From positions 14,775 to 78,774 of the forward strand of contig JBLHIH010000001.1 in the NCBI GenBank assembly GCA_047616645.1: a stretch of DNA of 64,000 nt, read 5' to 3'. Both the position numbers and the translations under genes were made by a program. Under the pieces are notes generated by a model. That model ran no database searches, was not told the origin of the DNA, and saw nothing but the letters and a program-made list of their open reading frames with translations. Shown piece after piece: positions 9,391 through 61,860 of this stretch (position 1 is its first letter; each line of letters begins with the position of its first letter). The DNA is from Flavobacterium sp. GTDB lineage: Bacteria > Pseudomonadota > Gammaproteobacteria > Pseudomonadales > Azotimanducaceae.

Positions 9391-9907
9391 TTGTGCAGTT
9401 ATCAATCCCTAAAGGATCGCATTTTGTCCTTTGTTGTCGACAGAAGTATAGTGCTTATTAAGTCTTTCAAAGATATCTATAATGCAAAAAGAAATAGCCA
9501 GTTAGGCATCCTCTTTACAGTGGAAGAAAGTGACATTCAAATAGCTGGGCCTCATCACAATGGTTTAACCAAGTTTGGTGTAGAAGTCGTAAAAGCCATG
9601 AATCAATCTGGCATGATTATCGATTTTGCTAATGCATCTAAGAAAACGGCACTGGAAACTTCATCGAAGTTTTAGATAAAGTAGTGATAATTTCTCGCAC
9701 TGCAATTCAAAGAAAAGGATTTGCTAGCCCCGATTTATTTATCATGATTTAGCAAATCGCGTGGGAAAATCAATGCTTGGCATGCAGGGATAGGCTTGTT
9801 TAATCTAAGTGATTATGTAGATCAAATATTTCACTAGTATATGAAGTCGGCATTGATGATGTGTCCATGAGGAGTGATATGGACGGAAACGAAAAACCTG
9901 TTTTTTG
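9391..9907 (+). pseudogene. decayed membrane dipeptidase (peptidase M19) remnant
   Basis: Three blocks match the intact M19 copy at 23204-24442 but lie in different frames with stops between them. GLTKFGVEVVKAMNQSGMIIDFANAS matches [36 protein letters not shown] matches PVIASHSSVR. DQIFH / EVGIDDVSMRSDMDG matches DHIDHVV..IDHIGIGSDFDG. The catalytic His/Asp positions are replaced. Confidence 0.55.
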
Positions 9908-16967: not shown

Positions 16968-17546
16968 TTACCTATTTGCCATCGATTTCGCGCGCTCCAA
17001 TATCATATCCCAAGGTGGTCGCGCCCTATAACCTTCTTCCGCAAATTTCTCAACAATTATGCCCTTGTCATCCACTAGGAATATGCCAGGGTAGGGTATG
17101 CCATAGGCGCGGTGACCTGGTTCATAATCTTTATTCAATATCCCAAACCGAATGACATGTTGGGCATCGACATCTGAAAGGAGGGGGAATTTAATACCTT
17201 CCTTTTTCGCGAATTTCACGATGTCGGCATTCTTATCGTAAGTCATGCTGACGGCCTTAATACCCAATTTTTCAAAATCTTTTTCAAATTTAGACAACTG
17301 CACGAGTTGTTTTTGGCAGAATGGTCACCAGACAATTGAGCGGTTAAAGAGGAGTAAATATCCCTTCTTACCGCTTAAGGATTGATTGTTCCAGTGTTTG
17401 CCATTTTGATCTATGGTATTAATCTCTGGAACTGTCTGTCCGATAGCAATTTCAGGTGCCCAATCATCTGCGATTACATTAGTTGTCAACAGCAGTGCGA
17501 TAAGGGGCAACAAAATCTTATAGTTGTTAAGCTTTATCATCATCAT
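16968..17546 (-). CDS. secreted AhpC/TSA-redoxin (Prx-like/thioredoxin-fold) protein with in-frame TGA in a UxxC motif; candidate selenoprotein
   Basis: Two same-frame ORFs are separated by a single TGA (17327-17325). Read-through gives a 192-aa protein with a signal peptide: ...GKKGYLLLFNRSIVW-U-PFCQKQLVQLSKFEKDFEKLGIKAVSMTYD...FPLLSD...GIPYPGIFLVDDKG. The TGA occupies the first Cys position of WCxxC. Confidence 0.7.
17285..17315 (-). other. SECIS-like stem-loop downstream of the in-frame UGA
   Basis: The mRNA reads UGA-CCAUUCUGC-CAAAAACAACUCGUGCAGUUGUCUAAAUUUG. Upper stem is ACAAC(U)/(A)GUUGU with a G/U-containing apical loop (CGUGC). Lower stem is CAAA/UUUG. The upper stem starts 14 nt after the UGA. 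Confidence 0.4.
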
Positions 17547-17685
17547 TCGGTTTTTATCCTATTAAAGAAAGAATGCACTAGGAAGACCATCGTCATTTGC
17601 AGTTAATTACATCCAATTAGCGTATATTTCTGATCTTGGCTGTATCCTAGTCTAAACAAAAATTAACAAGTGAATATCGATCAGG

Positions 17686-41873: not shown

Positions 41874-43474
41874 GTGACTATGTTTAAGCAAGATATAAGT
41901 CAAATTCAGGGGAGCAAATTTCAAGAAATAGTGCAATCGGAAGAAGAAGATCTTTTTGCATTATTAACAAAAAGAGCGTGGGTAAACGCAAGTGAAAAGC
42001 TTGGTATATGTGGGACTTTAAAAAGTGGAGGTAAAATCTATCTCAATATTGGTATTAAGCGCATTGGCAAAAATAGATATCAACTTAACTTAGTGGACGT
42101 TTCTTCCCAAAAAGCTGCTGACAAACGTTTTATCAAATTAGCTAACTATGACCCCGTCACGGGACTTGCAAATCGGGGCTTACTGTTAGAGTTTTTACAA
42201 CGTACGATCAACAGGAGCAAACATGGTGGAAAGTTAGTAGCGCTTCTCTGCTTAATTTAAACCACTTTAATCGTATTGATGATAAGACAGGCGTACAGCT
42301 AAGCGATGAAGTATTGAAAGCCGCAGCGGAAAGACTACAGTTTTTAGTTCACGATAATGACATGTTAGCAAGATGGGGTGGCGATGAGCTCGCACTTGTC
42401 ATGGAAGATTTACAATATATCGACAGTGTTAGTCGTATCGCCGAAAAAATCGTTTCGATCTATTCTAATCCATTTGTGATTGAGGGACATGAGTATTACG
42501 TTTCACCCAGTATAGGCATTGCTGTCTTTCCAGAGGCTGAAGATACGATAAACGGATTAATTCAAGCTGCAGATACAGCTATGTATGAAGCTAAAACTCA
42601 AGGAGGACGTAATACTTATCGATTCTATCAATCAAAATTGCAGGAAGACACGGAAGAACGTGCATCCATAGAACGACAATTGAGCCGAGCGCTTGATCAT
42701 AATGAACATGAACTGCACTGCCAGCCAAAGGTTTCTATCACAGGAGAAAGCGTTGTTGGTTTTGAAGCACTGTTAAGATGGAATCATCCTGATTGGCAAA
42801 ATGTCAGCCCTGAAAAATACATAGCTGTTGCAGAGAATTCTGGTTTAATTAAGCCCATAGGTGACTGGGTAATTCGCCAAGCTTGTATGCAAATGGGGAT
42901 TTGGATTGACAAATATTCACAAATGCGTGATTGCAGTATTGCTGTTAACGTTTCACCAAAACAGTTTAATGATCCATATTTGCCAGGGCGGATCGCGGTG
43001 ATACTCGCAGCATCAAATTTAGATGCGGCGAGATTAGAAATTGAAATCACAGAATCTGCGATAATGGATAACCCCGTTCAAACAATTGACATCCTTCAGA
43101 AAATTCATGAACTTGGAATTAAAATCACCATTGACGATTTTGGTACCGGTTATTCGTCGTTAAGTTACTTAAGCAAAATGCCCATTGATTGTTTCAAAAT
43201 TGATAGGAGCTTTGTTCTTGATATTGGCTTAAACCATTCTACTGAATCAATTATTCAGGCCATCTTAGTGATGTCGTCAGAACTCGGCTTAACGAATGTT
43301 GCAGAGGGTATCGAAACTGTAGAACAGATGGGCTTTTTTAGAAAGACAAACTGTGATGTTCTTCAAGGTTATTTGTTTAGCAAAGCGAGGTCAGAGGAGG
43401 GCATCGATATGCTATTTTCTGGGGACTACCTGCCACTACACCAATCGCTGAGTAAGCTTGAGCTCGGTCGGTAA
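41874..43474 (+). pseudogene. PAS-like / degenerate GGDEF / EAL signalling protein gene interrupted by a 1-nt frameshift
   Basis: ORF 41874-42260 ends ...DPVTGLANRGLL...GGKLVALLCLI*. The next frame continues (L)NLNHFNRIDDKTGVQLSDEVL...RWGGDELALV and then an intact-looking EAL domain (EALLRW, DDFGTGYSSLSYL, QGYLFSKA). The frames join near 42240-42257. Upstream, 41441-41873 has only broken frames. Confidence 0.7.
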
Positions 43475-43477
43475 AGT

Positions 43478-44548
43478 TTAGTCATTAATAGATGGCTCAT
43501 TATGCGCTTTATTCATTACTTTTAACAAATCCTCTTGAGAGCCGGAGGCAATTATTCTGTCCTGCTTTTGCTCTAGTTGGTAGTCATACATGGGGTCATA
43601 ATATTGCGTGAGTAACAAGGCAATCCATTTTTTGTGGCCTTGACTGTCACCTTTTCGATGCAGGTTAAATGCATTTAGCATCAATCCACTCGCCTCTTTG
43701 TAGGCAATACCTCCCAATCGTTTTCGAATCGAAAACAAGGATTTCTCATACTTTTCTTGAAGTGAGGAAAGGGCGATAGTGGGTTCTGCATATTCATCTA
43801 ATTGGTCTAATACATACTCCTGAAATATCCTATCCACGCGATTTTCCACACTATCCTCTAAAAGCAGAATGGATGCCTTTTTCATTCCATCTTGAAGCGC
43901 CTGAGGTACATTTAAACGACCTATTAGTCTACCCTCATCTTCGACGAAAACGCGACTAGGTGACTTTAATAAGTCGATTGCGATCATGTTTTCGAAGTTA
44001 ATTTGTGTTGGCTGAAGCGTCAACTTGCTACCAAATGCAGAGCCTCTATGATTTGCTCTGCCTTCGAGGTCTATATAAGCGGGAGCGCGAATTAATAACG
44101 CTGTCTTGCCTGTACCTGTACGCCCAGAAATAATGACTAATTTGGGTAATTGTGTAAATACTTGTAGTAGAGATTGTCGAAGTGCTTTGTAGCCTCCTTC
44201 AATTTTTTTAACATCATATCCAGCTTTACTTAACCATTTTTGGGCAATACTAGATCGCTGACCTCCCCGAAAACAATAAAGCAGCGTGGCCGGGTTGCGT
44301 TCTAAAAGCTCGATCCATTGCCTAATAATACGATCTTTTTTCTCTCCTTGTACTAGCTTATGGCCGAGTAGGGTAGCTGCCTCCGGACCTTGATTCTTAT
44401 AGCAGATACCGATTTGCTCTCGATCCAAGTCATCTAGAATTGGCAAATTGCTCGCCGTGGGAAACGCGCCTTGTTGAAATTCAACTGGCGCTCTCACATC
44501 AAGTAGTGGCAAGTTCTTGGTGAAAATGGCGTGATATGAATCCAACAC
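43478..44548 (-). CDS. selU: tRNA 2-selenouridine synthase (rhodanese + P-loop)
   Basis: 356-aa ORF collinear with E. coli SelU/YbbB. LLDVRAPVEFQQGAFP, ICYKNQG, active-site CFRGGQRS, IEGGYKALRQ, Walker A GRTGTGKT, DLEGRANHRGSAFG, YYDPMYDYQLEQK. Confidence 0.9.
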   Translation of the reverse strand: MLDSYHAIFTKNLPLLDVRAPVEFQQGAFPTASNLPILDDLDREQIGICYKNQGPEAATLLGHKLVQGEKKDRIIRQWIELLERNPATLLYCFRGGQRSSIAQKWLSKAGYDVKKIEGGYKALRQSLLQVFTQLPKLVIISGRTGTGKTALLIRAPAYIDLEGRANHRGSAFGSKLTLQPTQINFENMIAIDLLKSPSRVFVEDEGRLIGRLNVPQALQDGMKKASILLLEDSVENRVDRIFQEYVLDQLDEYAEPTIALSSLQEKYEKSLFSIRKRLGGIAYKEASGLMLNAFNLHRKGDSQGHKKWIALLLTQYYDPMYDYQLEQKQDRIIASGSQEDLLKVMNKAHNEPSIND

Positions 44549-44662: not shown

Positions 44663-45280
44663 ATGTTAAATTCATTTAAAACATGCTTAAGCATTGTGTT
44701 CATCGTATTTACCGCAATAAATAGTGATTCAATATATGCGGATAAGTTTGCTGATACGCTACAAGACTTTGTCGGCGCTGCGGAATCAGAATCGATGATC
44801 AATGATGCCTATGCGTATGCAATATTTCCTACCATCGCTAAAGGTGGTTTTACCCTCGGTGCCGCTTACGGTAAAGGAAAAATATTTGTCGGCAAAAATT
44901 TGGCTGGCGATATGACAATGAGCCAAGTGAGCTTTGGGTTTCAATTTGGTGGGCAGACGTATAGTCAACTGGTACTTCTAAAAGATAAGCGCGCTGTAGA
45001 TGAATTTGTTTCAGGTAGCTTTGAGTTCGGCACCCAAGCCACTGCCGTGGCCTTAATGCTGGGAGCTAATGCTGAAGCATCTACTCGTGGTCAATCTATA
45101 GGACATGCTAACGCGGATAGTGCTGAAGTTTCGGCCAACTATTATAAAGGCATGGCGGTTTATACCATCGCCAAAGGTGGGTTGATGTATGAGGCGTCTA
45201 TTGCAGGGCAAAAGTTTGATTATCGTGGAATAGGAGAGATCCCTGATGTAGAGGATCTGAGTATTCAAAAAATCGAATGA
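44663..45280 (+). CDS. secreted SYLF (Ysc84-like, DUF500) lipid-binding domain protein
   Basis: 205-aa ORF with a signal peptide. AYAIFPTIAKGGFTLGAAYGKG and GFQFGGQTYSQ blocks typical of SYLF domains. Confidence 0.6.
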   Translation: MLNSFKTCLSIVFIVFTAINSDSIYADKFADTLQDFVGAAESESMINDAYAYAIFPTIAKGGFTLGAAYGKGKIFVGKNLAGDMTMSQVSFGFQFGGQTYSQLVLLKDKRAVDEFVSGSFEFGTQATAVALMLGANAEASTRGQSIGHANADSAEVSANYYKGMAVYTIAKGGLMYEASIAGQKFDYRGIGEIPDVEDLSIQKIE

Positions 45281-45550: not shown

Positions 45551-46603
45551 TCAAATAAGACTGTCAGCGCTAATAACTTCACCGCTGCGATCACACTCAT
45601 AACCTGGTAGTTTATTTACCACGATTTGGAATTCACTGTCAGCCAGTGTCGAGATAAACGCTTGAATGTCTGGATCATGTTCGGCAACCAATGGATATGC
45701 CCACAAATAGTATTCCTGAGCTATTGGCGCAAAACCTAAATTAAATCGGCGAGCAGCTGTTTCTACGCCAAATCCAACGTCTGCCATGCCCGAGGCAATG
45801 TGCGCAGCGACAGCTGAGTGTGTGAATTCTTGATCGCTGTAGCCATCAATTTTAGAAAAATCGATATGTTGATTTTTTAAGAGTTGTTCTAACAGTACTC
45901 TGGTCCCAGAAGTATCTTGACGATTGATAAACCGGAAACCACCTTTACCTAAATCGCTAATTCTGCTGATAGCAAAGGGATTGTCATCAGCAAAAATTAA
46001 ACCTTGCTGGCGGCGTACAAAACGAATTATACCGAAGCGACTAGGGTCAAGTAGCTCACGATAACGGGCCTTTTGGGCGGGTATTTCTAGATTAATAGCT
46101 TGGTGAAAGCCAGCTATACGACAGCGTCCTTCATTTAGCGCAATTAATGCGTGCTCTGGCGAGTGGTAATGCATTTCAACCTGAGAATAGCGTGTAAATT
46201 CGGTCATCGCTGCGACAGCGTAACCGTGACTTGCAAATATCCGAACAACTGGCTCATCGCTGGCTAAGATATTTTGCAGCTCGACATTCAATTCGCTGGA
46301 CAAACTTTCGGCTTCTGGGTGCAGGCGCGCTTCAATACGTTGGTTACTGCGTAGTAGTTTCATCCCTAAAGGCAATAAAGTAGCGCCGCGCCCTTTTTCT
46401 AGTATGACCAAGGGACTACCAAAAAAGACTTCACTATCGCGTAGTAAATTCCAAGCATGCCGGTACGAAATGCCGACGCCTTTAGCCGCTTGGGTCAAAC
46501 GACCAGTGCGGTTTATTCCGTCTAAAAGCGGTAAGAGGTTGTCATGCAGGCTCTGACCCTTCTCGTTTTCGAATCCCCATTTGGGAATGACTTTAATATG
46601 CAT
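45551..46603 (-). CDS. ModE-N-terminal-type HTH transcriptional regulator fused to a periplasmic-binding-protein-like (PBP_like) sensor domain
   Basis: 350-aa ORF. N-terminus LLDGINRTGRLTQAAKGVGISYRHAWNLL...EKGRGATLLPLG matches the ModE/LysR-type HTH_1. The C-terminal half has FINRQDTSGTRVLLEQLL, as in oxyanion-binding PBP_like domains. Divergent from fdsG. Confidence 0.6.
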   Translation of the reverse strand: MHIKVIPKWGFENEKGQSLHDNLLPLLDGINRTGRLTQAAKGVGISYRHAWNLLRDSEVFFGSPLVILEKGRGATLLPLGMKLLRSNQRIEARLHPEAESLSSELNVELQNILASDEPVVRIFASHGYAVAAMTEFTRYSQVEMHYHSPEHALIALNEGRCRIAGFHQAINLEIPAQKARYRELLDPSRFGIIRFVRRQQGLIFADDNPFAISRISDLGKGGFRFINRQDTSGTRVLLEQLLKNQHIDFSKIDGYSDQEFTHSAVAAHIASGMADVGFGVETAARRFNLGFAPIAQEYYLWAYPLVAEHDPDIQAFISTLADSEFQIVVNKLPGYECDRSGEVISADSLI

Positions 46604-46680
46604 AAAATATCATATTTGGATAACTATAAAGTTTTGTTAGAGTAGCAAATTCAAGGGGAATAGAAAACAAATAGGTAATT

Positions 46681-46702
46681 TTTTGCATATATATATACAA
46701 AA
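46681..46702. promoter_or_regulatory. near-perfect 22-bp AT-rich palindrome in the regulator/fdsG divergent promoter region
   Basis: TTTTGCATATATATATACAAAA, with one symmetric mismatch pair. Confidence 0.25.
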
Positions 46703-46727
46703 ATAAAAAAGGTTGAAAATGCTAAAA

Positions 46728-46755
46728 CCTAGATAAAGCTAAGCCTAGATAAAGC
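46728..46755. promoter_or_regulatory. perfect 12-bp direct repeat CCTAGATAAAGC x2 (16-bp period) 36 nt upstream of fdsG
   Basis: Read directly: CCTAGATAAAGC-taag-CCTAGATAAAGC. Confidence 0.3.
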
Positions 46756-46790
46756 ACAAATAATATACCCTATATAAAGGTATCTAGTGA

Positions 46791-47315
46791 ATGAACAAAA
46801 ATAACCTCATCTACTCTCATCAAGATGAAACAAAAAGAAGCATAGAGCTCATAATAGAAGGCCTAATAGATAAGCCAGGCGCCCTGCTGCCTATTTTGCA
46901 TGAAATACAAAACCAACTTGGTTATGTACCGCAAAATGCGACCCCTATTCTTGCTAGAAAATTGAATTTGTCACGCGCTGAGGTACACGGTGTTATCAGC
47001 TTTTATCATCATTTCAGCTCTAAACCCCGGGGCAAACATATCATTGAAGTCTGCCGTGCCGAGTCTTGTCAGTCAGTTGGAGGCAGAGATCTTGAGCAAT
47101 ATGCTAAAGACAAGCTTAAGCTGGATTGGTACGAAACCAGTCTTGATGGTCAATTTACCTTAGAACCCGTTTATTGCTTGGGAAACTGTGCATGTTCACC
47201 CGCTGTCCGTGTTGGCAAAAAAATACTAGGCCGTGTAGATACTCAGCGCTTTGATCAGCTCTTGGTAGACCTTGAAAAGACACAAATAATGACCAAAGAG
47301 GAAGCCGAATCGTGA
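46791..47315 (+). CDS. fdsG: NAD-dependent formate dehydrogenase gamma subunit (NuoE-like 2Fe-2S)
   Basis: 174-aa ORF. NuoE-type Cys pattern (CRAESC ... CLGNCACSP). Upstream of the NuoF-like subunit. Confidence 0.85.
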   Translation: MNKNNLIYSHQDETKRSIELIIEGLIDKPGALLPILHEIQNQLGYVPQNATPILARKLNLSRAEVHGVISFYHHFSSKPRGKHIIEVCRAESCQSVGGRDLEQYAKDKLKLDWYETSLDGQFTLEPVYCLGNCACSPAVRVGKKILGRVDTQRFDQLLVDLEKTQIMTKEEAES

Positions 47316-48877
47316 GTATTCGACTATATATTCCGAGGGATTCAAGCTCACTCTCTGTTGGCGCTGAAGAAGTCGCTATCGCGCTGCAGTTGGCCCTCCA
47401 TTCAGAAGATGTATCAATCATTCGGAATGGTTCTAGGGGTCTTTACTGGCTAGAGCCAATGATCGAAGTTGAAACCTTAGAAGGTCGAGTTGCTTATGGT
47501 CCAGTTCAGGCGAGTGACGTTGCTGATTTACTCAACCATGGTTTTATCAAGGGCGAGCAAGGTCACCCTTTATGCTTGGGTCTGACAGAAGAAATCCCTT
47601 ACCTTAAAAAACAACAGCGCCTCACCTTCGCTCGAGCCGGCGTTATTGATCCGATTAGTCTTGATGACTACATAGCGACTAGTGGTTATAAGGGCTTAGA
47701 AAGAGCTATTACAATGACACCGCAGGAATTGATTGATGAAATCAAAGCGTCCGGCTTACGCGGTCGCGGTGGTGCGGCTTTTCCCACTGGAATCAAGTGG
47801 CAAACAGTTTTAAATGCTCAAGCAAACGGCCTATCAGCCCAAAAGTATATTGTTTGCAATGCCGATGAAGGTGATTCAGGCACTTTCGCTGACCGTCTAC
47901 AAATGGAAGCTGATCCCTTTGGTTTAATAGAGGGCATGACGATTGCGGGTCTCGCTGTAGGAGCAAGCGATGGTTATATCTATTTACGTGAAGAATATCC
48001 TCATGCACATGAAATTCTAGACGCGGCAATTGTCATTGCTGAAGCAAATAACTACCTTGGCGATAACGTGCTTAATTCAGGCAAAGCTTTCCGCCTTGAA
48101 GTTCGCCTTGGTGCCAAAGCCTATATTTGCGGTGAAGAAACCGCCCTTTTAGAAAGTCTGGAAGGTAAGCGCGGCATGGTGCGTCCAAAGCCCCCTCTTC
48201 CCGCAATTGAAGGCCTATTTGGACAACCAACAGTTATCAACAATGTGCTTTCACTTTCTACTGTTGCCATCATTCTTGCCAAAGGCGCTGAGTTTTATAA
48301 GTCCTTCGGTATGGGTCGCTCTAGAGGCACTATGCCTTTCCAACTTGCTGGCAATTTAAAACAGGCTGGCTTGGTCGAATTGGCTTTTGGGGTTAGTTTG
48401 AGAGAACTCATCTACGATTTCGGCTGTGGCAGTCGTTCGGGAAAACCACTTCGTTCCGTACAAGCGGGTGGACCCTTGGGCACCTATATGCCGGAATCAC
48501 AGTGGGATGTCGCCATGGACTATGAAGAGATGGCAAAGCTTGATGCTGTGCTAGGACATGGTGGTATCGTTGCTTTTGATGACAGTGTCGATATGGCAAT
48601 ACAAGCGCGATTTTCTATGGCGTTCTGCGTTGAAGAGTCCTGCGGAAAATGTACGCCATGCCGTATTGGTTCAACTCGCGGTGTTGAGGTAATAGATCGT
48701 ATTAGAGCCGATGAAGACCGTACAAATAATATCGAATTGTTGGAAGAGCTTTGCGACACAATGGTCCATGGTTCTTTATGTGCAATGGGTGGCATGACGC
48801 CCTTTCCAGTACAAAGCGCGTTAAAACATTTCCCTGAAGACTTCACAAAACCATCTCGAATGGTCGAAAGTATATAA
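47312..48877 (+). CDS. fdsB: NAD-dependent formate dehydrogenase beta subunit (NuoF-like, FMN/NAD/4Fe-4S)
   Basis: 521-aa ORF. GLRGRGGAAFPTG, CNADEGDSGTF and ESCGKCTPCR motifs. The GTG start overlaps the fdsG stop. Confidence 0.9.
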   Translation: MSIRLYIPRDSSSLSVGAEEVAIALQLALHSEDVSIIRNGSRGLYWLEPMIEVETLEGRVAYGPVQASDVADLLNHGFIKGEQGHPLCLGLTEEIPYLKKQQRLTFARAGVIDPISLDDYIATSGYKGLERAITMTPQELIDEIKASGLRGRGGAAFPTGIKWQTVLNAQANGLSAQKYIVCNADEGDSGTFADRLQMEADPFGLIEGMTIAGLAVGASDGYIYLREEYPHAHEILDAAIVIAEANNYLGDNVLNSGKAFRLEVRLGAKAYICGEETALLESLEGKRGMVRPKPPLPAIEGLFGQPTVINNVLSLSTVAIILAKGAEFYKSFGMGRSRGTMPFQLAGNLKQAGLVELAFGVSLRELIYDFGCGSRSGKPLRSVQAGGPLGTYMPESQWDVAMDYEEMAKLDAVLGHGGIVAFDDSVDMAIQARFSMAFCVEESCGKCTPCRIGSTRGVEVIDRIRADEDRTNNIELLEELCDTMVHGSLCAMGGMTPFPVQSALKHFPEDFTKPSRMVESI

Positions 48878-48905
48878 TTAGGTCGCACATAAGTAGGTAA
48901 TAAAT

Positions 48906-51788
48906 ATGTTGGAATATTTCGATCCAAGAACTGATTTAGATTGTGAGATAGATTACGGGACGCCCCCTACTTCTGTTGACCCAACACCTGTGGCTGACTT
49001 AGTTAGCCTAAAAGTTGACGGCAATGACATTAAAGTACCAAAGGGGACTTCGGTATTAGCCGCAGCAGCGATGGCCGGCATCAATATTCCCAAGCTCTGT
49101 GCGACAGATAGTCTGGAAGCTTTTGGATCTTGCCGTTTATGCCTTGTCCAGATTGAAGGTCGTCGAGGCTACCCTTCATCCTGTACAACGCCAGTTGAAG
49201 AAGGCATGCTCGTTAAAACGCAGAATGAAAAAATCGCTACATTGCGTCGCAACGTGATGGAAATGTATATTTCCGACCATCCTCTTGACTGCCTAACGTG
49301 TCCTGTTAATGGCAATTGTGAATTGCAAGACATGGCAGGCAGCGTCGGTTTACGTAATGTGCGCTATGGTTATGAAGGCGATAATCATCTTGATGCTGAG
49401 AAAGACACCTCGAACCCCTATTTTACCTTCGACCCCAGTAAATGTATCGTTTGCTCACGTTGTGTACGCGCTTGTGAAGAAACTCAAGGTACTTTTGCTT
49501 TAACTATTTCTGGTAGAGGTTTCGAATCTAAGGTCTCACCTGGAGAAGACCAAGCTTTTATGGATTCTGAATGTGTGTCTTGTGGTGCTTGTGTACAGGC
49601 CTGTCCAACAGCAACACTGACAGAAAACTCCATTATTGATAAAGGTCAACCAGACCATTCTGTTATCACAACCTGTGCCTATTGTGGCGTTGGATGTGCC
49701 TTTAAAGCTGATATGAAAGGTGATGAAGTTGTTCGAATGACACCATGGAAAGGTGGCAAGGCCAACCGAGGGCACTCCTGTATAAAAGGTCGGTTTGCCT
49801 TTAGTTACGCGACACATAGTGATCGTATCATTACGCCAATGATTCGCGAATCGATTGATCAGCCCTGGAGAAAGGTCTCTTTCGATGAGGCATTTGAATT
49901 TGCCGCAGCGCGGATTAAACATATCCAAGGCAAATATGGACGGCTTTCTGTTGGTGGTATTACCTCCTCACGTTGTACCAATGAAGAAACCTATCTTGTA
50001 CAAAAAATGGTACGTACCGCTTTTGGTAATAATAATGTCGATACCTGTGCTCGAGTATGCCACTCACCTACGGGCTTTGGTTTAAAAACGACCCTTGGAG
50101 AATCTGCAGGTACACAGACATTTGATTCGGTAGAGAAATCAGATGTCATCATGGTGATTGGTGCTAACCCAACGGATGCGCATCCCGTGTTTGGATCGCG
50201 CATGAAAAAACGCTTAAGAGAAGGCGCGAAACTGATTGTTGTTGATCCTCGAAGCATTGATCTTGTTGACGGCCCGCATGTAAAAGCTGATTACCATGTA
50301 AAACTTCTCCCCGGTACCAATGTCGCCTTCGTCAATGCTATGGCTCATGTCATTATTGATGAAGGGCTTGAAGCCAAAGCCTTTATAGAAGATCGATGCG
50401 AAATTGAGGCTTTTAAAAAGTGGAAGTCGTTTATCGGTGATATTCGCCACTCACCAGAAGCGACTGAGAAAAATACAGGTGTTCCTGCAGATATCATACG
50501 AAATGCCGCCCGCCTCTATGCATCTGGCGGTAATGGTGCTGTTTATTACGGCCTCGGCGTGACAGAGCACAGTCAAGGATCAAGTGCTGTCATGGGTATC
50601 GCGAACCTTGCTATGTTAACTGGCAACATTGGTCGAGAAGGCGTTGGCGTTAACCCTTTGCGCGGCCAAAACAACGTCCAAGGTTCCTGCGATATGGGGT
50701 CTTTTCCCCATGAACTCCCCGGCTATCGTCATATATCGGGTCAGGAAGTGCGAAGTCAATTTGAAAAAGCATGGAAGGTGGAACTTGACCCAGAACCCGG
50801 CTATCGCATCACGAATATGCTAGATGCTGCCGTAGAAGGAACTTACAAAGGGCTATATATTCAAGGCGAAGATATTGCACAATCAGATCCGAATACACAC
50901 CATGTTGAAGCGGCTCTGCGCGGGCTGGAATGCTTGATTGTTCAGGATATATTTCTTAACGAAACCGCCAAATATGCACATGTTTTTCTGCCTGGTACGA
51001 GTTTCCTAGAGAAAAGCGGCACCTTTACTAACGCCGAACGTCGAATATCCCCTGTTCGCAAGGTGATGCCACCGCTTCCGGGTTTAGAAGATTGGCAAGT
51101 CACCATGGGCTTATCTAAAGCATTAGGGTACGAGATGAATTACAGCCACCCTTCTGAAATTATGGACGAAATTGCAACCCTCACACCTACTTTCTCTGGT
51201 GTTTCTTACAAGCGATTAGACGAAGAAGGTTCATTGCAGTGGCCCTGTAATAGCCTGGCACCAATGGGTACACCCATTATGCATGTGGATGAATTTGTTC
51301 GAGGTAAGGGTTTCTTTGCTCTCACAGAATATGTGCCTACGGATGAAAAGGTAAACAGGAAATTTCCTTTGTTATTAACGACTGGACGCATACTTTCCCA
51401 ATACAATGTCGGTGCACAGACACGGAGAACCCCGAATTCCACTTGGCATTCTGAGGACGTTTTCGAAATTCACCCTCAAGATGCAGAAGATCGAGGCATC
51501 AATAATGGGGATAGAGTGGCTTTATCTAGCCGAAGCGGTTCGACAACCTTACATGCACTCATTACTGAACGCATGCAACCAGGGGTCGTATACACGACAT
51601 TCCATCACCCAAATACGGGGGCAAATGTAGTCACCACAGATAACTCAGATTGGGCAACCAACTGTCCAGAATATAAGGTCACTGCTGTGCAAGCCAACAA
51701 GGTGACTAGCGCAGATGTCACCTCAGAATGGCAGACGCAGTTTGAGGAATTTTCAAAGACTCAATTGGCCTATGTAGAAAATGATTGA
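48906..51788 (+). CDS. fdsA: NAD-dependent formate dehydrogenase alpha subunit (molybdopterin; Cys-type active site)
   Basis: 960-aa ORF. NuoG-like N-terminal Fe-S domains and an MopB catalytic domain with CARVCHSPT (Cys codon TGC at 50058-50060, where Sec-type enzymes have UGA). Confidence 0.9.
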   Translation: MLEYFDPRTDLDCEIDYGTPPTSVDPTPVADLVSLKVDGNDIKVPKGTSVLAAAAMAGINIPKLCATDSLEAFGSCRLCLVQIEGRRGYPSSCTTPVEEGMLVKTQNEKIATLRRNVMEMYISDHPLDCLTCPVNGNCELQDMAGSVGLRNVRYGYEGDNHLDAEKDTSNPYFTFDPSKCIVCSRCVRACEETQGTFALTISGRGFESKVSPGEDQAFMDSECVSCGACVQACPTATLTENSIIDKGQPDHSVITTCAYCGVGCAFKADMKGDEVVRMTPWKGGKANRGHSCIKGRFAFSYATHSDRIITPMIRESIDQPWRKVSFDEAFEFAAARIKHIQGKYGRLSVGGITSSRCTNEETYLVQKMVRTAFGNNNVDTCARVCHSPTGFGLKTTLGESAGTQTFDSVEKSDVIMVIGANPTDAHPVFGSRMKKRLREGAKLIVVDPRSIDLVDGPHVKADYHVKLLPGTNVAFVNAMAHVIIDEGLEAKAFIEDRCEIEAFKKWKSFIGDIRHSPEATEKNTGVPADIIRNAARLYASGGNGAVYYGLGVTEHSQGSSAVMGIANLAMLTGNIGREGVGVNPLRGQNNVQGSCDMGSFPHELPGYRHISGQEVRSQFEKAWKVELDPEPGYRITNMLDAAVEGTYKGLYIQGEDIAQSDPNTHHVEAALRGLECLIVQDIFLNETAKYAHVFLPGTSFLEKSGTFTNAERRISPVRKVMPPLPGLEDWQVTMGLSKALGYEMNYSHPSEIMDEIATLTPTFSGVSYKRLDEEGSLQWPCNSLAPMGTPIMHVDEFVRGKGFFALTEYVPTDEKVNRKFPLLLTTGRILSQYNVGAQTRRTPNSTWHSEDVFEIHPQDAEDRGINNGDRVALSSRSGSTTLHALITERMQPGVVYTTFHHPNTGANVVTTDNSDWATNCPEYKVTAVQANKVTSADVTSEWQTQFEEFSKTQLAYVEND

Positions 51789-53227: not shown

Positions 53228-53947
53228 TTACAACAAGCTATTTAGTGTTGAAACACCCATAGGCTTACCACAAAACTCCTGCATTGCATCAAGTAATCCT
53301 TCCCACAAAAATTCATTCGTACTTAAATCCGCAAGAATAAAAAAGCAAAGTGTGTCTCCTTGATCGAGACGAATCACTATCGAATTAACCCGTGCAAGGA
53401 ATGTTTGCGCAACATTAAACTGATCAAATTTGTGTGGACGCATATCTACCGCACAGACTTTAGATAATACTTGTGCGGCTAGCGAGCCGGTCAGTGCAAA
53501 GCAGCCATGACTATCCGCTCGTTCAAGTAAATAGCTTCGAATGCCTATATTCATAGACAAATTATTACGAAGCTTTCGCAGCTTTGAATTTTCGCTAGCA
53601 ACAGGGTCCAGCATAAGATATTCATGATCTGAAAGGCGAGCAACCGTTAGACCCTCTCGGCTTATGCAAGCCTCGTTTGGTCTTTCAGGTAGACTAATGT
53701 TCTGGTTTGATAACCAGCTTGAGGTATCAACACCTTTAAATCCAAGTCTGGACACGCCAGTTAAGTCGAAAATTGCTAAGGATTGAGCTTGTTTGATACC
53801 TAATTCCTCATCTTCTGGGTAGCTATTGACCAACACAGATTCAGATCGACCCACAAACTGTGCCTTGCGAGATTCATGATATCGATATAAGGGACTTCGG
53901 CGCGCGACATTCGTTGGTGAATTATTTAAGTTCTCGGACATGTTCAT
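53228..53947 (-). CDS. soxG: sarcosine oxidase gamma subunit
   Basis: 239-aa ORF overlapping the soxA stop by 4 nt. Size and position are as in soxBDAG operons. Sequence recognition is weak. Confidence 0.7.
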   Translation of the reverse strand: MNMSENLNNSPTNVARRSPLYRYHESRKAQFVGRSESVLVNSYPEDEELGIKQAQSLAIFDLTGVSRLGFKGVDTSSWLSNQNISLPERPNEACISREGLTVARLSDHEYLMLDPVASENSKLRKLRNNLSMNIGIRSYLLERADSHGCFALTGSLAAQVLSKVCAVDMRPHKFDQFNVAQTFLARVNSIVIRLDQGDTLCFFILADLSTNEFLWEGLLDAMQEFCGKPMGVSTLNSLL

Positions 53948-56880
53948 AGGGCCTGTCGTTTGTTTTTAGCATCGTAAAATGGCAGAGCAGTGACTTCTGC
54001 ACTGACTCGGACCCCCTTACTGCTCTTGATTTCTATAATGCTACCCGGTTCGGATTTTTTCATTGAGACGTATGCCAAGCCAACAATCTTATCAAGGGTC
54101 GCTGAATAAGCGCAGGATGTAACTCGACCAATCATCGTCTCGCCCTCCAACACTAAATGAGATTCCTGTGGTTGTGGACCTGTATTTGTTTGTATTGAAA
54201 AGCCGACCAGCGCACGTGTCTGGGCCTTTTTTTCCAGCTCTCGAATCGTTCGGGCGCCGACAAAGAAAGGCTTTTTACGTGCTATTGCCCATGCCATCTG
54301 TACCTCAATAGGGTTGGTCATAGCATCCGTATCTTGGCCGATGATCACGTGGCCTTTCTCCAAACGGAGTATTCGCTGCGCTTCGACGCCAAAAGGTTTT
54401 ATACCCATCGCCTCGCCTGCTTGGATTAATAAATCCCAGAGTTGCTCACCATATTGCTGTGGCACATGAATCTCATAACCGAGTTCCCCAACAAAACCAA
54501 CGCGAATGATGCGTGCCGGGATGCCTGATAAAGTGCCTGTACGAACGCCCATATATGGAAAATCTTCACGGGACAATTTAATGTCGTCACAAACCTTTGC
54601 CAATACTGTTCTGGAATGTGGGCCCGCGAGATTCACACCACACCAAGCAGTTGTCACGTTGGTAATATCGACATCCATACGCCATTGGGCGTTCCATTTC
54701 AGCATGCTTTGATGAACACGACCCACGCCTCCTGTTGTGGCGGTGACATAAAAATGATCCTTTTGAAAACGACAAGCGACACCATCATCGATCACCACAC
54801 CAGCGTCGTTTGTTAGCAGCGCGTAGCGTGCTTGACCAATTGACTGTTTCACAAAAGCAAAGGTATAAAAACGATTTAAGAAAATAGCCGCATCTGGACC
54901 ACGTACTTCAATGCCGCCTAAAGTTGAGACGTCGATCAGACCCACATTCTTGCGAACATTGATTACTTCAGCGTTAATAACTTCGTCGGAGGAGGAGGGT
55001 TTTACGGAATAGTAGGCCGGTCTATACCACTCGCCTGCCAACATCATTTGGGCACCAGCTTCGATATGACGGTAGTGCATATTGGTTCTTCGTACGGGAT
55101 AAAAACTGCGTCCGGCATTGTGCGCAATTAGTTCTGCTGCGAAAGGCGGTCTTGCGGTGGTTACGCCAATTTCGGCGACGGTGCGACCTGTCGCCTCCGC
55201 TACTAAGCGAGCAGCGGCCAGTGCGGAATGTCTACCCTGCGATGGACCCATTCCGCAAGTTGAATAGCGTTTTACTAATTGAATATGCTCATAGCCCTCA
55301 CGGGTCGCATTAACAATATCTTTAATCTGTAGGTCTTCATCAAAATCGACAAATTCTTTGCCTTTAGGGTGGGAAAACATCGGCCAGTCAAAGTTGACAT
55401 TTTGGGCCAAGGGATCATCTCCGGCGAACTTTGTTATGGGTCTGGTTTCGCCCTTAACGTTTGCTGCCGCTATAGCACCCGTATAACTACCCTCAGCAAG
55501 TACATCATCTAGTCCCCATTTGCCATTCACAGACCCGGCAATTGAGAAATGCTCTGGGTAGTTGTTTAAAGTAAAGGCACAGGATTCATCGTCATAGCTC
55601 AATTGTCCTCCCGCCTGACAAATCAACTGATAGGTGGGTACATAACCAATTGACATACAGAGCAGATCACAGTCAATGATCTCTTTGGAAGATGAACATT
55701 TTCCTCGACTGATAATTGATCGTACATCAACCTTCTTAATACGCTGTGCCCGTCGATCCATAAAGGCTTCATACACAGTACTGTTCTGATGTATCGTAAT
55801 ACCCGCTCTGACGATCGATCTATACAACGCAGTGTCAACGGGTTCAGCGCGCATATCCACAACTGCCTTTATACATACTCCTGCTTCCATCAGATCTAAA
55901 GCAGTGGCGTAGCCTTCATTGTTACCGGTTAATATAACAGCGCAATTCCCAGGTTTAATTCCGTAGAGGTGAACTAATCGTTGTGCTGCACTAGACATGA
56001 CAACCCCTGGGATATCATTGCCTCTAAATACGGCTTGTTGTTCCAAAGAACCCGTACAGGCCACCACTTCTTTTGCTCGCACTTTATACAGGCGGTTTTC
56101 AGCAACAAGTGCCAACCAATTATCCGCATGCCAACTATTGACTGTGGTACTTGTTAACACTTCAATATTCTCGGCAGACTCGACTTGTTCAATGAGTGAT
56201 TGCCTTAACTGTTTAGCAGCGACTGTAATCTCATCAAAACGTGCGTAATTAAGTGAGCCGCCTAGCACAGGGTTTTCATCGATTATCATGACATCAACGC
56301 CGGTCTTAGCTGCTTCCAATCCTGCGGACAATCCAGCAGGGCCACCACCAATCACTAGTACATCAGCGAACTTATATTGTTTGTCAAAATATGTCGGCTC
56401 GAAGGATTCGTCAATTTTGCCGAGGCCTGACTGTTTACGGATGAAGGGTGCCCAAAGCTCCCAAATTCCCTTCGGTCTAAAAAAAGCTTTGTAGTAAAAT
56501 CCAACTGGCAGAAATCGAGATAACAATCCTGTAAAGGCTTGAAGGTCGTATCTTAAGGAACCTGTAAAGTTTTGAGCCTCAACTACCAAATCTTGTTGAA
56601 CATTCTTTTTATCCGCCAAGGTATTGGGTGCAGACGGTAGTTGCACTAAGGTATTTGCATCTTGTCCCGCCATGGTCAAAGGACCTCGGGGGCGGTGATA
56701 TTTAAATGACCGACTCATTAACCAATGTCCTTCAGCTATAAGAGCGCTGGCTATCGTGTCGCCTTCAAAACCTTTGATAACTTGTTTTTCGAAACTAAAA
56801 GATAATGGTTTGGAACGATCGATTAATAAGCCGTACGCTTTGGGCAAGCGTGATGATGAAGCAGTATTTTTTGGATACAT
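53944..56880 (-). CDS. soxA: sarcosine oxidase alpha subunit
   Basis: 978-aa ORF. N-terminal 2Fe-2S-like/FAD-NAD domains (VIGGGPAGLSAG) and a C-terminal GcvT-like folate-binding domain (GFVGELGYEIH). Confidence 0.9.
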   Translation of the reverse strand: MYPKNTASSSRLPKAYGLLIDRSKPLSFSFEKQVIKGFEGDTIASALIAEGHWLMSRSFKYHRPRGPLTMAGQDANTLVQLPSAPNTLADKKNVQQDLVVEAQNFTGSLRYDLQAFTGLLSRFLPVGFYYKAFFRPKGIWELWAPFIRKQSGLGKIDESFEPTYFDKQYKFADVLVIGGGPAGLSAGLEAAKTGVDVMIIDENPVLGGSLNYARFDEITVAAKQLRQSLIEQVESAENIEVLTSTTVNSWHADNWLALVAENRLYKVRAKEVVACTGSLEQQAVFRGNDIPGVVMSSAAQRLVHLYGIKPGNCAVILTGNNEGYATALDLMEAGVCIKAVVDMRAEPVDTALYRSIVRAGITIHQNSTVYEAFMDRRAQRIKKVDVRSIISRGKCSSSKEIIDCDLLCMSIGYVPTYQLICQAGGQLSYDDESCAFTLNNYPEHFSIAGSVNGKWGLDDVLAEGSYTGAIAAANVKGETRPITKFAGDDPLAQNVNFDWPMFSHPKGKEFVDFDEDLQIKDIVNATREGYEHIQLVKRYSTCGMGPSQGRHSALAAARLVAEATGRTVAEIGVTTARPPFAAELIAHNAGRSFYPVRRTNMHYRHIEAGAQMMLAGEWYRPAYYSVKPSSSDEVINAEVINVRKNVGLIDVSTLGGIEVRGPDAAIFLNRFYTFAFVKQSIGQARYALLTNDAGVVIDDGVACRFQKDHFYVTATTGGVGRVHQSMLKWNAQWRMDVDITNVTTAWCGVNLAGPHSRTVLAKVCDDIKLSREDFPYMGVRTGTLSGIPARIIRVGFVGELGYEIHVPQQYGEQLWDLLIQAGEAMGIKPFGVEAQRILRLEKGHVIIGQDTDAMTNPIEVQMAWAIARKKPFFVGARTIRELEKKAQTRALVGFSIQTNTGPQPQESHLVLEGETMIGRVTSCAYSATLDKIVGLAYVSMKKSEPGSIIEIKSSKGVRVSAEVTALPFYDAKNKRQAL

Positions 56881-56885
56881 GATAT

Positions 56886-57182
56886 CTAGCCTGCCCCATC
56901 GGTTTTGCTATTTTGCTTCTTTGAATTTGTTAGCTCGCTTGCTTTAAATGTACGGACGATGTGGTCTGTGACAGTATTACGCTCAGCAAGAAACCAGTAA
57001 GCGCTTGCCATATGAAACCACCATTCGGTCACCACGCCCGCCTTGTTGTCATGGAAAAAGACATACTCAGCCCATTCTCGCGCGTCGCTTGTTTGATCAT
57101 CTGGCATCGGGTGATACTCGCCGCCATAGGAAAATTCACTAATATTACGCGGGCCGTTCAATGGACAGGTTAGCAATTTCAT
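56886..57182 (-). CDS. soxD: sarcosine oxidase delta subunit
   Basis: 98-aa ORF. MKLLTCPLNGPRNISEF.YGGE N-terminus typical of SoxD. Confidence 0.85.
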   Translation of the reverse strand: MKLLTCPLNGPRNISEFSYGGEYHPMPDDQTSDAREWAEYVFFHDNKAGVVTEWWFHMASAYWFLAERNTVTDHIVRTFKASELTNSKKQNSKTDGAG

Positions 57183-57193
57183 AATACTCTCTC

Positions 57194-58435
57194 CTAGTGG
57201 CTCGCGGCGGTTGCACCGGCTTCATTGATTTGTTGGTAACGATAGAACCGTTCGAGCTCGAAGGGTTTAATCAGTTCGGGAACCTCTTGAGTCGCGATAA
57301 GGTCAGCCATGGTTTTTCCGCAAATGGGTGTGGCTTTAAACCCCCAAGTTCCCCAGCCGGCATCAAGATAATAATTTTTGACAGGGCTTAGTCCCATAAT
57401 GGGGCTATAGTCTGGTGTCATGTCAGTGGTTCCAGCCCACTGGCGTAGCATTTTTGCTTGAGCCAAAAAAGGGAATAATTCCAACGCGGCCGCAGATAGA
57501 CTTTCTTTTTGGTTCAGTGTTGAACGCGTGTTATACAGTGGATAAGGGTCCGAGCCACCACCAATAACGAACTCGCCTCGGGAGGTTTGGTGTATATATA
57601 CATGTACGTGTGGCGAACTTACATGGGGCGTCAGAATGGGTTTGTAGGGTTGGGTAACCATTGCTTGAAGAGGGTATGAATGAATGGGTAGTTTTATACC
57701 GGCTAAATCTGCGACAACAGAGCTTGAGCCGGCTACCGCCTGGACTACACAGCCACACGCTATGCGTCCGCGATTTGTATTCACCGCTTTAACTCTACCG
57801 GCTTCTATTTCAATGCCCTGCACTTCTGTTAGTTGATGTAATTCAACGCCTCGTTCACAAGCGCCTTTAGCATAACCCCATGCAACAGCGTCGTGTCGAG
57901 CCGTCGCACCATCTGCATGCCAAAGACCAGCAAGAATAGGGAACTGTGAATCTGGGTTTATGTGCAAATTAGGCACTAGCTCACGAATAGTCTGAGTGTC
58001 GACCAGCTCTGAACGAACACCTAAATGCTGATTCACCTCTGCACGCCATCGAAAACTTCGAATAGCGGCATCGGTGTGAGCCAATGTTAGTTGTCCACGA
58101 TTTTCGTACATGACGTTATAGCCAAATTCATTACTGAGGTTTTGAAACATCTTTACCGACTCGCGATAAAAGGAAACGCCTTCTTCAGTTAAATAATTTG
58201 ATCGAATAACTGCTGTATTCCTAGCTGTATTTCCGCCGCCTAGATAGCCTTTGTCCAATACAGCAACATTTGTGATGCCGTAGTATTTTGCCAAATTGTA
58301 GGCTATGGCGGTACCGTGGCCACCGGCACCAATGATAACGACATCGTAATGTTTTTTTAAATCCTGAGTTGGTGTAAAATGGTGTTTGTCGGCATGGTCT
58401 TTCTTAAGACCGTATTTAAGTAATGCAAAAGGCAT
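57194..58435 (-). CDS. soxB: sarcosine oxidase beta subunit
   Basis: 413-aa ORF. VVIIGAGGHG FAD motif and a DAO-family body. NTARNTAVIRSNY block typical of heterotetrameric SoxB. Confidence 0.9.
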   Translation of the reverse strand: MPFALLKYGLKKDHADKHHFTPTQDLKKHYDVVIIGAGGHGTAIAYNLAKYYGITNVAVLDKGYLGGGNTARNTAVIRSNYLTEEGVSFYRESVKMFQNLSNEFGYNVMYENRGQLTLAHTDAAIRSFRWRAEVNQHLGVRSELVDTQTIRELVPNLHINPDSQFPILAGLWHADGATARHDAVAWGYAKGACERGVELHQLTEVQGIEIEAGRVKAVNTNRGRIACGCVVQAVAGSSSVVADLAGIKLPIHSYPLQAMVTQPYKPILTPHVSSPHVHVYIHQTSRGEFVIGGGSDPYPLYNTRSTLNQKESLSAAALELFPFLAQAKMLRQWAGTTDMTPDYSPIMGLSPVKNYYLDAGWGTWGFKATPICGKTMADLIATQEVPELIKPFELERFYRYQQINEAGATAASH

Positions 58436-58528
58436 CGCTATGCTCCCTCGGCTACTTCGATTTTTACATTGGCGCTTAAAACGATGAATAAATTTTCATC
58501 AACCCTGATCGACATAATGTATATTTTC

Positions 58529-59404: not shown

Positions 59405-59456
59405 AAGATCTTTTTCTATTGGTATTCATTAAGACACAAAATTCAGTTATAACAAG

Positions 59457-61837: not shown

Positions 61838-61860
61838 TATCGCAACCTCACGAAAATCAT

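Follow-up and report, generated by a model that had tools for sequence, protein, structure and literature searches.

The locus described here raises the question of whether an in-frame TGA ends a gene or encodes an amino acid within it. It lies in a 64,000-nt stretch of contig JBLHIH010000001.1 (assembly GCA_047616645.1; hereafter the window), where minus-strand positions 17546-16968 form one 579-nt frame whose sole internal stop is a TGA at 17327-17325. Read through, the frame encodes a peroxiredoxin (Prx)-like redoxin with a predicted export signal, and we conclude that the TGA, codon 74, is very probably a genuine selenocysteine (Sec) codon.

The TGA is preceded by TGG (Trp) and followed by CCA-TTC-TGC (Pro-Phe-Cys), giving W-[TGA]-P-F-C; the read-through translation runs ...LLLFNRSIVW, the TGA, and then PFCQKQLVQLSKF.... 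A mechanical list of open reading frames (ORFs) splits the frame into a 73-aa part (17546-17325) and a 111-aa part (17303-16968), the second of which starts with an in-frame GTG seven codons past the TGA. An earlier note on this DNA, made from the sequence alone, had described two same-frame minus-strand ORFs parted by one TGA, and its coordinates and sequence proved exact. When the window was scanned for TGAs flanked on both sides by 50 or more open codons, this was the sole gene-compatible TGA-split ORF pair; two other such TGAs lie antisense to real genes and were rejected as not gene-compatible. Among the window's 55 likely genes, TGA is the stop codon of 10, including fdsA (48906-51788) and a 978-aa ORF (53944-56880). 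As TGA is thus a normal stop for these genes, the genetic code is standard, with no reassignment.

A search of ~5.8 billion proteins returned 101 homologues. Full-length Cys homologues (186-196 aa) are collinear with the read-through product, and all read W-C-P-[FYW]-C around the column of the TGA. By our count, 42 of the 101 measure no more than 106-118 aa and match just the C-terminal 53-58% of the query. In each short case that was opened, a 68-86-aa in-frame ORF ends exactly 22 nt before the called gene, with a TGA at the same column. These cases comprise loci L004/5 (72% identity), L006/7 (59%; Pseudomonadales metagenome-assembled genome (MAG) GCA_016763855.1), and L008 and L009 (~45%, in a different neighbourhood). 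A scan of GTDB with one genome per species yielded 80 loci, in which the codon at this column is TGA in 31 and TGT or TGC in 49, a sample biased towards Cys through the W-C-P that one of the two scan patterns demanded. The earlier note had placed the TGA at the first Cys of a WCxxC motif, and the homologue alignment bears this out, Cys or TGA occupying the column throughout these loci. The TGA-type hosts include complete Pseudohongiella chromosomes, many Pseudomonadales/Gammaproteobacteria MAGs, and MAGs of Acidobacteriota/Vicinamibacterales; among the complete genomes with the TGA form are OX638341.1, OZ220475.1, OZ241324.1, OZ241750.1, and CP121329.1, and Pseudohongiella nitratireducens SCS-49 is one of the Cys-type genomes. 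TGA-type genes reach relatives of only ~45% identity and occur in two phyla. One MAG, JBCCTU01, holds both a Cys-type (L040) and a Sec-type (L054) paralogue on separate contigs.

Selection was compared on the two sides of the TGA by the ratio of nonsynonymous to synonymous substitution rates (dN/dS), calculated without gaps; the upstream values of pairs with L004 were disregarded, as a 2-residue indel shifts the register. In pairs aligning without gaps, dN/dS is ~0.1-0.3 both upstream and downstream (for example 0.20 and 0.14 for L009/L012, and 0.18 and 0.13 for L070/L086). On both flanks of the TGA the frame is preserved and purifying selection acts, in keeping with the earlier observation that family-typical sequence stands on both sides.

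If UGA is read as Sec, a selenocysteine insertion sequence (SECIS) would be expected just past it. The 66 nt from the TGA align gap-free across 35 distinct TGA-type genes, and RNAalifold finds a single helix in them, pairing columns 18-23 with 29-34 around a 5-nt loop. In the window this corresponds to a 17-nt hairpin whose first paired base lies 14 nt past the UGA and whose loop lies 20 nt past it. Across the TGA-type genes 99.0% of cells are paired, with 34 double-sided changes, and three of the six stem pairs covary: pair 18-34 takes all four Watson-Crick types (UA 12, CG 10, GC 8, AU 4), pair 22-30 changes from CG to UA in 10 sequences, and pair 21-31 occurs as GC, AU, and GU. In 500 column shuffles the covariation score was never reached, and with the partner displaced by 1-3 columns pairing fell to 6-41%. 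The Cys-type genes of the family, which code for the same stretch of protein and have no need of a SECIS, served as a natural control (n = 38): pairing in these columns is only 72.8% of cells, and pair 18-34 fails in 21 genes. The loop carries G-U at columns 25-26 in 35 of 35 TGA-type genes versus 1 of 38 Cys-type genes, and 33 of 35 versus 0 of 38 combine the GU loop with an unbroken helix. The codon bearing this GU encodes Val in all 35 TGA-type genes, yet it encodes 11 different residues in the Cys-type genes (Q, E, I, K, S, V, L, A, R, G, and N); a codon that is invariant in one group and unconstrained in the other indicates a constraint on the RNA, not on the protein.

The hairpin resembles the fdhF/fdnG-type SECIS elements of Escherichia coli in lying within the coding region just past the UGA and in presenting a small apical loop with G followed by U; it differs from them, and from the bSECISearch consensus, in having neither the bulged U nor the conserved long lower stem. 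The minimal fdhF element measures 17 nt, a size comparable to that of the window hairpin. A published model of bacterial SECIS elements gives a loop of 3-9 nt, a stem of 4-16 bp, and 16-37 nt from UGA to loop, with a G as the first or second loop base and usually G or U as the next one (PMC13188914). The window hairpin agrees with this geometry (loop 5 nt, stem 6 bp, loop sequence C-G-U, UGA-to-loop distance 20 nt). Three Cys-type genes nested in Sec clades, L040 (3190-3255), L049 (3157-3222), and L036 (3136-3201), keep a CAGCUG...CAGCUG palindrome; the loop of L040 still reads GUU, and the loop GU is lost in L049 (UUA) and L036 (UCC). On their sequence, these palindromes look like fossil SECIS elements left after replacement of Sec by Cys.

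Several observations weigh against Sec decoding of the window gene. Its hairpin is weak, at -3.4 kcal/mol alone and -6.5 kcal/mol within the 66 nt, against a model filter of -7.5, and single-sequence folding is no better than shuffles (z = -1.4 for the 17 nt; +0.45 and +0.83 in longer contexts). Part of the stem is owed to coding, the Gln-Leu codons CAG-CTG being self-complementary, and the covarying states are largely clade-specific, which reduces the independent events to perhaps five or more rather than 34. No Rfam SECIS or other credible family was found in the whole window at the gathering threshold or in 17150-17450 at E <= 10. Finally, selA, selB, selD, and tRNA-Sec were not found in the window and ~10 kb beyond each end, as searched by tblastn with E. 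coli SelA, SelB, and SelD (the positive control worked) and by ARAGORN for tRNA and tRNA-Sec. As regards folding energy, no copy is weaker than the A/U-rich one in the window: the -7.5 filter is passed by 34 of 35 homologues, and L004, the nearest relative, reaches -11.1 kcal/mol with an identical 17-nt hairpin. Some accepted SECIS elements also fail the published model (PMC13188914). Of the hairpin that the earlier note had seen after the TGA, the existence, the covariation, and the TGA-type-specific loop GU stand, but taken alone it is not better than chance; it is convincing by comparison of homologues only.

The machinery genes and tRNA-Sec were likewise not found in the flanks of 89 homologue loci, and ARAGORN found no tRNA or tRNA-Sec in the window or any locus. 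Covering ~84 kb of a multi-megabase genome, the search of the window and its surroundings is uninformative rather than negative. The window does contain selU (mnmH), as the earlier note had said, with a match above the curated cut-off; its presence is indirect evidence of selenophosphate synthesis and implies SelD. In many genomes selD lies next to selU, but not here; flanking selU are genes at 42314-43474 (GGDEF/EAL protein) and 44663-45280 (SYLF-domain lipoprotein). Further on, an NAD-type formate dehydrogenase operon (45551-51788, plus strand; L095 21367-21563) encodes subunits of 174, 521, and 960 aa, the last matching TIGR01591 at 906 bits, with a ModE-like regulator before the operon and FdsD after it. 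The alpha subunit is an uninterrupted ORF and is presumably the Cys form, although the organism appears to decode Sec.

How else could the TGA be explained? An error for TGT or TGC in sequencing or assembly has a negligible probability, since the identical TGA is present in contigs of three assemblies from separate sequencing runs (L001-L003; SRR28416755, SRR28417531, SRR28417444), the contig of one run coming from a strain variant that differs by two residues upstream of the TGA, as well as in the JGI and NCBI copies of the gene and in dozens of species. A pseudogene or two unrelated small ORFs, in which a nonsense mutation at the active-site Cys stops translation after 73 residues and the 111-aa ORF is either dead or translated independently from its GTG, would fit what gene callers and NCBI annotate, namely MFT5208321.1 (hypothetical, 73 aa) and MFT5208320.1 (peroxiredoxin, 111 aa), and would also fit the lack of Sec machinery in the ~84 kb examined. 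We regard it as extremely improbable: the same TGA column occurs in at least 35 distinct genes from two phyla with purifying selection on both sides, and a chance nonsense mutation would neither recur in this way nor accompany a specific hairpin. The GTG that would serve as the second start is itself the SECIS loop, in the same frame and seven codons past the TGA. The earlier note's claim that a nonsense mutation is less likely than Sec decoding is thus upheld.

Only slightly less remote, and still very unlikely, is that the UGA is decoded as something other than Sec, whether as Cys by a non-canonical tRNA(Cys), as Trp by a near-cognate tRNA, or under a code in which UGA is sense. In 'ReC' type systems, SelB and a SECIS direct the insertion of Cys by a non-canonical tRNA(Cys), and here the organism's tRNA and SelB were not seen, so that the identity of the inserted residue is deduced. 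A UGA-sense code is contradicted by the window ORFs that end in TGA, long conserved genes among them; a Trp in place of the nucleophile would leave the redox centre inactive; inserting Cys would bring no advantage over the TGY codon used by 49 homologues; and selU shows that the cell handles selenium. Sec at codon 74 accounts for the data best in our judgement.

We then considered what the read-through protein is. With the TGA translated as Cys, Pfam assigns residues 35-173 to AhpC-TSA (2.9e-23; 82.6 bits, cut-off 26) and Redoxin (2e-18). The N-terminal segment has a basic n-region, a hydrophobic core, and V-I-A, without a lipobox Cys (window ...LLLTTNVIA/DDWAPE, the slash marking the predicted cleavage site), and all homologues share the basic-hydrophobic-AxA layout before a conserved mature N-terminus, [DEQ]x[FW]xWAP. 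We read this segment as a predicted signal peptidase I signal peptide, by which the protein would be exported. The structure was modelled on the closest full-length Cys homologue, P0005. Its AlphaFold model (predicted local distance difference test 93, predicted template-modelling score 0.83) has a thioredoxin fold with the first Cys (C76) immediately before helix 77-95. Its nearest folds in the PDB are AhpE and BCP/PrxQ (template-modelling (TM) score 0.7-0.89, root-mean-square deviation ~2 Å), followed closely by ResA-type proteins, and the best PDB sequence match is ResA (1.5e-8). In the alignment to ResA, the Sec/Cys74 column falls on the first Cys of the CxxC; in that to AhpE, it falls on the catalytic Thr. 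Two residues of the canonical peroxiredoxin pattern (PxxxTxxC plus Arg) are accordingly absent: the catalytic Thr, which stands three residues ahead of the peroxidatic Cys, is replaced by Sec (Cys in homologues) and the catalytic Arg by Pro153, with 'pyPgif' in the family at the site of 'anRgtf' in AhpE. No curated NCBIfam model reached its cut-off for the redoxin, the best being thioredoxin-dependent thiol peroxidase at 52.6 bits versus 140.

By sequence, the protein is a peroxiredoxin scaffold with a thioredoxin-type U-x-x-C and cis-Pro centre, and we infer that it is a periplasmic thiol-disulfide (or sulfenate) reductase, whose substrates would be protein disulfides or sulfenates and not peroxides. 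Two points count against this role: by fold, the scaffold is closest to true peroxiredoxins, and a neighbour search across the homologue loci found no conserved redox-partner gene near the redoxin. The competing function is a periplasmic selenium-dependent peroxidase, with H2O2 or organic hydroperoxides reduced by Sec74 or Cys77. Sec reacts extremely well with peroxides, glutathione peroxidase being an example. The AhpC-TSA assignment, the structural resemblance to the 1-Cys peroxiredoxin AhpE and to BCP/PrxQ, the alignment of Cys77 with the peroxidatic Cys, and the thiol peroxidase as top NCBIfam model would all suit such an enzyme, although that model scores far under its cut-off. The protein lacks two of the three catalytic residues of Prx, however; W-C/U-P-x-C with a cis-Pro is the arrangement of thioredoxin, ResA, and DsbE, and the literature places the family as a thiol:disulfide oxidoreductase. 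We therefore consider a peroxidase rather unlikely, though a good deal less so than any of the alternative accounts of the TGA. As regards reduction by a thiol-disulfide route, distant homologues (P0088-P0091) have the redoxin domain fused to PF11412, a DsbD-N-terminal-like 'DsbC' domain; these fusions may be a weak hint at a DsbD-type electron supply for the family.

In the proposed mechanism, UGA codon 74 would be read as Sec during translation: the SECIS hairpin (17310-17294) would offer its loop G-U to SelB carrying Sec-tRNA(Sec), and SelB would bring Sec to the ribosome, competing there with release factor 2. The product would be exported to the periplasm through its N-terminal signal peptide. 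There, Sec74 at the N-terminus of helix alpha-1 would be the attacking nucleophile, Cys77 would resolve the intermediate by a selenenylsulfide, and the centre would be re-reduced by a periplasmic donor. What the analysis demonstrates is the conserved Sec/Cys pair, the conservation of frame on either side of it, the hairpin covariation, the loop GU confined to TGA-type genes, and the match of fold and active site; for the rest of this scheme we infer the presence of SelA, SelB, tRNA-Sec, and SelD, as well as export, the substrate class, and the electron donor. The features on which it draws are listed in Table 1.

Table 1. Positions of the Prx-like redoxin gene, its proposed decoding and active-site elements, and selU in the window.
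Feature	Position	Strand	Basis or remark
Complete selenoprotein gene, exported Prx-like redoxin (very probable)	16968..17546	-	192 codons + TAA stop (16970-16968); Sec = codon 74; single frame with one TGA
TGA read as selenocysteine (U74; very probable), N-terminal residue of the U-P-F-C motif	17325..17327	-	aligns with Cys or TGA in homologues
Bacterial SECIS hairpin ACAACU-CGUGC-AGUUGU	17294..17310	-	6-bp stem, 5-nt loop; RNAalifold consensus of 35 distinct TGA-type genes
SECIS apical loop CGUGC	17300..17304	-	G17303 and U17302 invariant in TGA-type genes; comparison with Cys-type genes
TGC, Cys77, predicted resolving partner of Sec74, equivalent to Prx peroxidatic Cys	17316..17318	-	invariant column; aligns with the peroxidatic Cys of AhpE
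CCT, Pro153, thioredoxin-fold cis-Pro position	17088..17090	-	invariant; aligns with R116 of AhpE and the Pro of 'PLPT' in ResA
Predicted Sec-type (export) signal peptide, residues 1-26	17469..17546	-	MMMIKLNNYKILLPLIALLLTTNVIA, followed by DDW; read by eye
Likely ribosome-binding site AGGA	17557..17560	-	10 nt 5' of the first ATG; probable from its sequence
selU/mnmH, tRNA 2-selenouridine synthase	43478..44548	-	NCBIfam NF008751, 428.7 bits versus cut-off 361

The UxxC Prx-like selenoprotein family has been known since 2004-2005 and is abundant in marine data. A 'Prx-like protein' was already a known selenoprotein family in the Sargasso Sea study (PMC1088965), and the Global Ocean Sampling data hold 225 selenoprotein and 2,740 Cys sequences of 'Prx-like 1' (pfam00578, UxxC; PMC2398784). 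Reviews list a 'Prx-like thiol:disulfide oxidoreductase, PF00578, UxxC/UxxU' as a high-confidence prediction (PMC9312934, PMC13188914). These reports bear out the earlier note, which had called thioredoxin-fold UxxC proteins an established class of bacterial selenoproteins, notably marine (PMC1088965, PMC2398784, PMC13188914). The window gene has the features that define the family, an AhpC-TSA domain and U-P-F-C, with U at the Thr column. Like the family at large (type member WP_010940744.1 of Geobacter sulfurreducens), it belongs to PF00578 and carries UxxC in place of T-x-x-U/C, and it has many Cys homologues and a SECIS directly after the UGA whose small apical loop contains a G. The likeness is one of described features. 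It differs in that its clade has a signal peptide. The hosts differ as well: the family was first seen in anaerobic Deltaproteobacteria, and the window clade occurs in aerobic Pseudomonadales (Pseudohongiellaceae-like) and in Acidobacteriota. Among the genomes of cultured Pseudomonadales examined in 2006, FdhA was the only selenoprotein found (PMC1794560), and our literature search returned no papers on selenocysteine in Pseudohongiella.

Comparison with other redoxins gives a similar picture of partial likeness. With ResA, TlpA, and DsbE (CcmG) the protein shares an exported or anchored thioredoxin fold, W-C-x-x-C at helix alpha-1, and a cis-Pro loop before the '..F[LV][IV]D' strand; in contrast, its scores fall short of the respective models (ResA NF002854, 41.7 versus 170; DsbE NF011941, 28.4 versus 359; TIGR00385, 25.3 versus 123) and its redoxin fold is nearer to AhpE and BCP. 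By these sequence comparisons the protein would work like the ResA and DsbE enzymes, yet it is not a member of their group. The AhpE and BCP/PrxQ peroxiredoxins have the same overall fold and Pfam family, with Cys77 at the peroxidatic Cys position; unlike them, the window protein has no catalytic Thr and Arg, and a CxxC-type centre such as it carries is foreign to Prx. In eukaryotes, SelL is a Prx-like selenoprotein with UxxU. To SelL-related redox proteins (NCBIfam NF040769) there is a weak match of 41.7 bits, and a Prx-like scaffold with a thioredoxin-like Sec dyad is common to both; the score lies under the 120-bit cut-off, and the dyad is UxxC in the window protein and UxxU in SelL.

The window gene stands 88 nt upstream of phoB-phoR, with pstSCAB-phoU beyond, and no terminator-like or promoter-like site was found between the redoxin gene and phoB on the minus strand. 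The adjacency to phoB pointed out in the earlier note is present in the window and in L006, a Pseudomonadales MAG with which the window shares the order DUF2059, SDR, acetyltransferase, redoxin, phoB, phoR; in L004, however, a peptidase gene intervenes between redoxin and phoB, and outside the window's nearest relatives the rest of the family lacks the arrangement. It is lineage-specific and implies no Pho link. The neighbour search found clade-specific synteny only, and its top 'cluster' was rejected as an antisense ORF artefact of high-GC genomes. In a Pseudohongiella-like clade, a signal peptidase I gene (Peptidase_S26) lies directly upstream on the same strand at 11 loci, 10 of them Sec-type (including L008 1031-1678 and L009 987-1685); the window's clade does not have that arrangement. 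The redoxin is not in a cytochrome-c maturation context. In the Cys-type loci L058, L060-L063, L065, L068, and L073, a canonical BCP/PrxQ-type Prx (..YPKAMTPGCT..) is encoded ~1.3-2.0 kb upstream on the opposite strand, so that a true Prx and the Prx-like CxxC protein coexist as neighbours in one Cys-type clade.

A neighbour-joining tree, approximate and unbootstrapped and built with the Sec/Cys column masked, groups the window gene with L004, L006, and L043 in a clade of Sec forms only. Sec forms populate several clades, with the Cys groups L040/L049, L036, and L077 nested inside them, and large Cys-only clades stand elsewhere. This pattern would fit repeated replacement of Sec by Cys, which has been described for bacterial selenoproteins generally (PMC1794560).

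Three NCBI MAG proteins identical to this gene (MFT5208320.1, MFT6754141.1, MFT7686345.1) are labelled 'Flavobacterium sp.'; this label is probably wrong, as the six-gene synteny with L006, the nearest homologues, which are all gammaproteobacterial, and the GGDEF/EAL protein indicate a gammaproteobacterium. Elsewhere in the window, an 83-aa ORF at ~9391-9675 (L092 2899-3150) with a Peptidase_M19 match, between phoU and an FMN reductase gene, looks like a remnant, and a full-length M19 dipeptidase gene runs past the right window end (from 63478). A glycine-betaine/sarcosine catabolic cluster occupies 53228-63423 on the minus strand (BCCT transporter, two unannotated ORFs, purU-like formyltransferase, sarcosine oxidase genes soxB-D-A-G) and is unchanged in several metagenome contigs (L095-L097).

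For current understanding of selenocysteine decoding these results change nothing; their main outcome is a correction of annotation. NCBI splits the gene into two proteins, and the false start of the 111-aa 'peroxiredoxin' is the GUG of the SECIS loop (17303-17301); ~40% of the family's entries (42 of 101) are equally shortened. A corrected annotation restores both the signal peptide and the catalytic residue. The 35 Sec-type and at least 38 Cys-type genes also form a natural experiment on the constraint that a SECIS places on the overlapping protein sequence. The exported clade, its aerobic Pseudomonadales-like and Acidobacteriota hosts, and its position below all NCBIfam cut-offs may be new points. 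More tentatively, and with some doubt on our part, these genes could form an undescribed signal-peptide sub-clade in which the whole SECIS is a 17-nt hairpin in the Q-L-V-Q-L turn of helix alpha-1, with a near-identical SECIS (CAGCUCGUG[C/G]AGCUG) in Pseudomonadales/Pseudohongiellaceae and Acidobacteriota. If this is true, either the gene was transferred between phyla together with its SECIS or its ancestry is very old and Sec has repeatedly been lost to Cys, and uncultured aerobic heterotrophs would have a periplasmic selenoproteome. For the uncultured Pseudomonadales-like gammaproteobacteria, the window gene very probably adds an exported selenoprotein.

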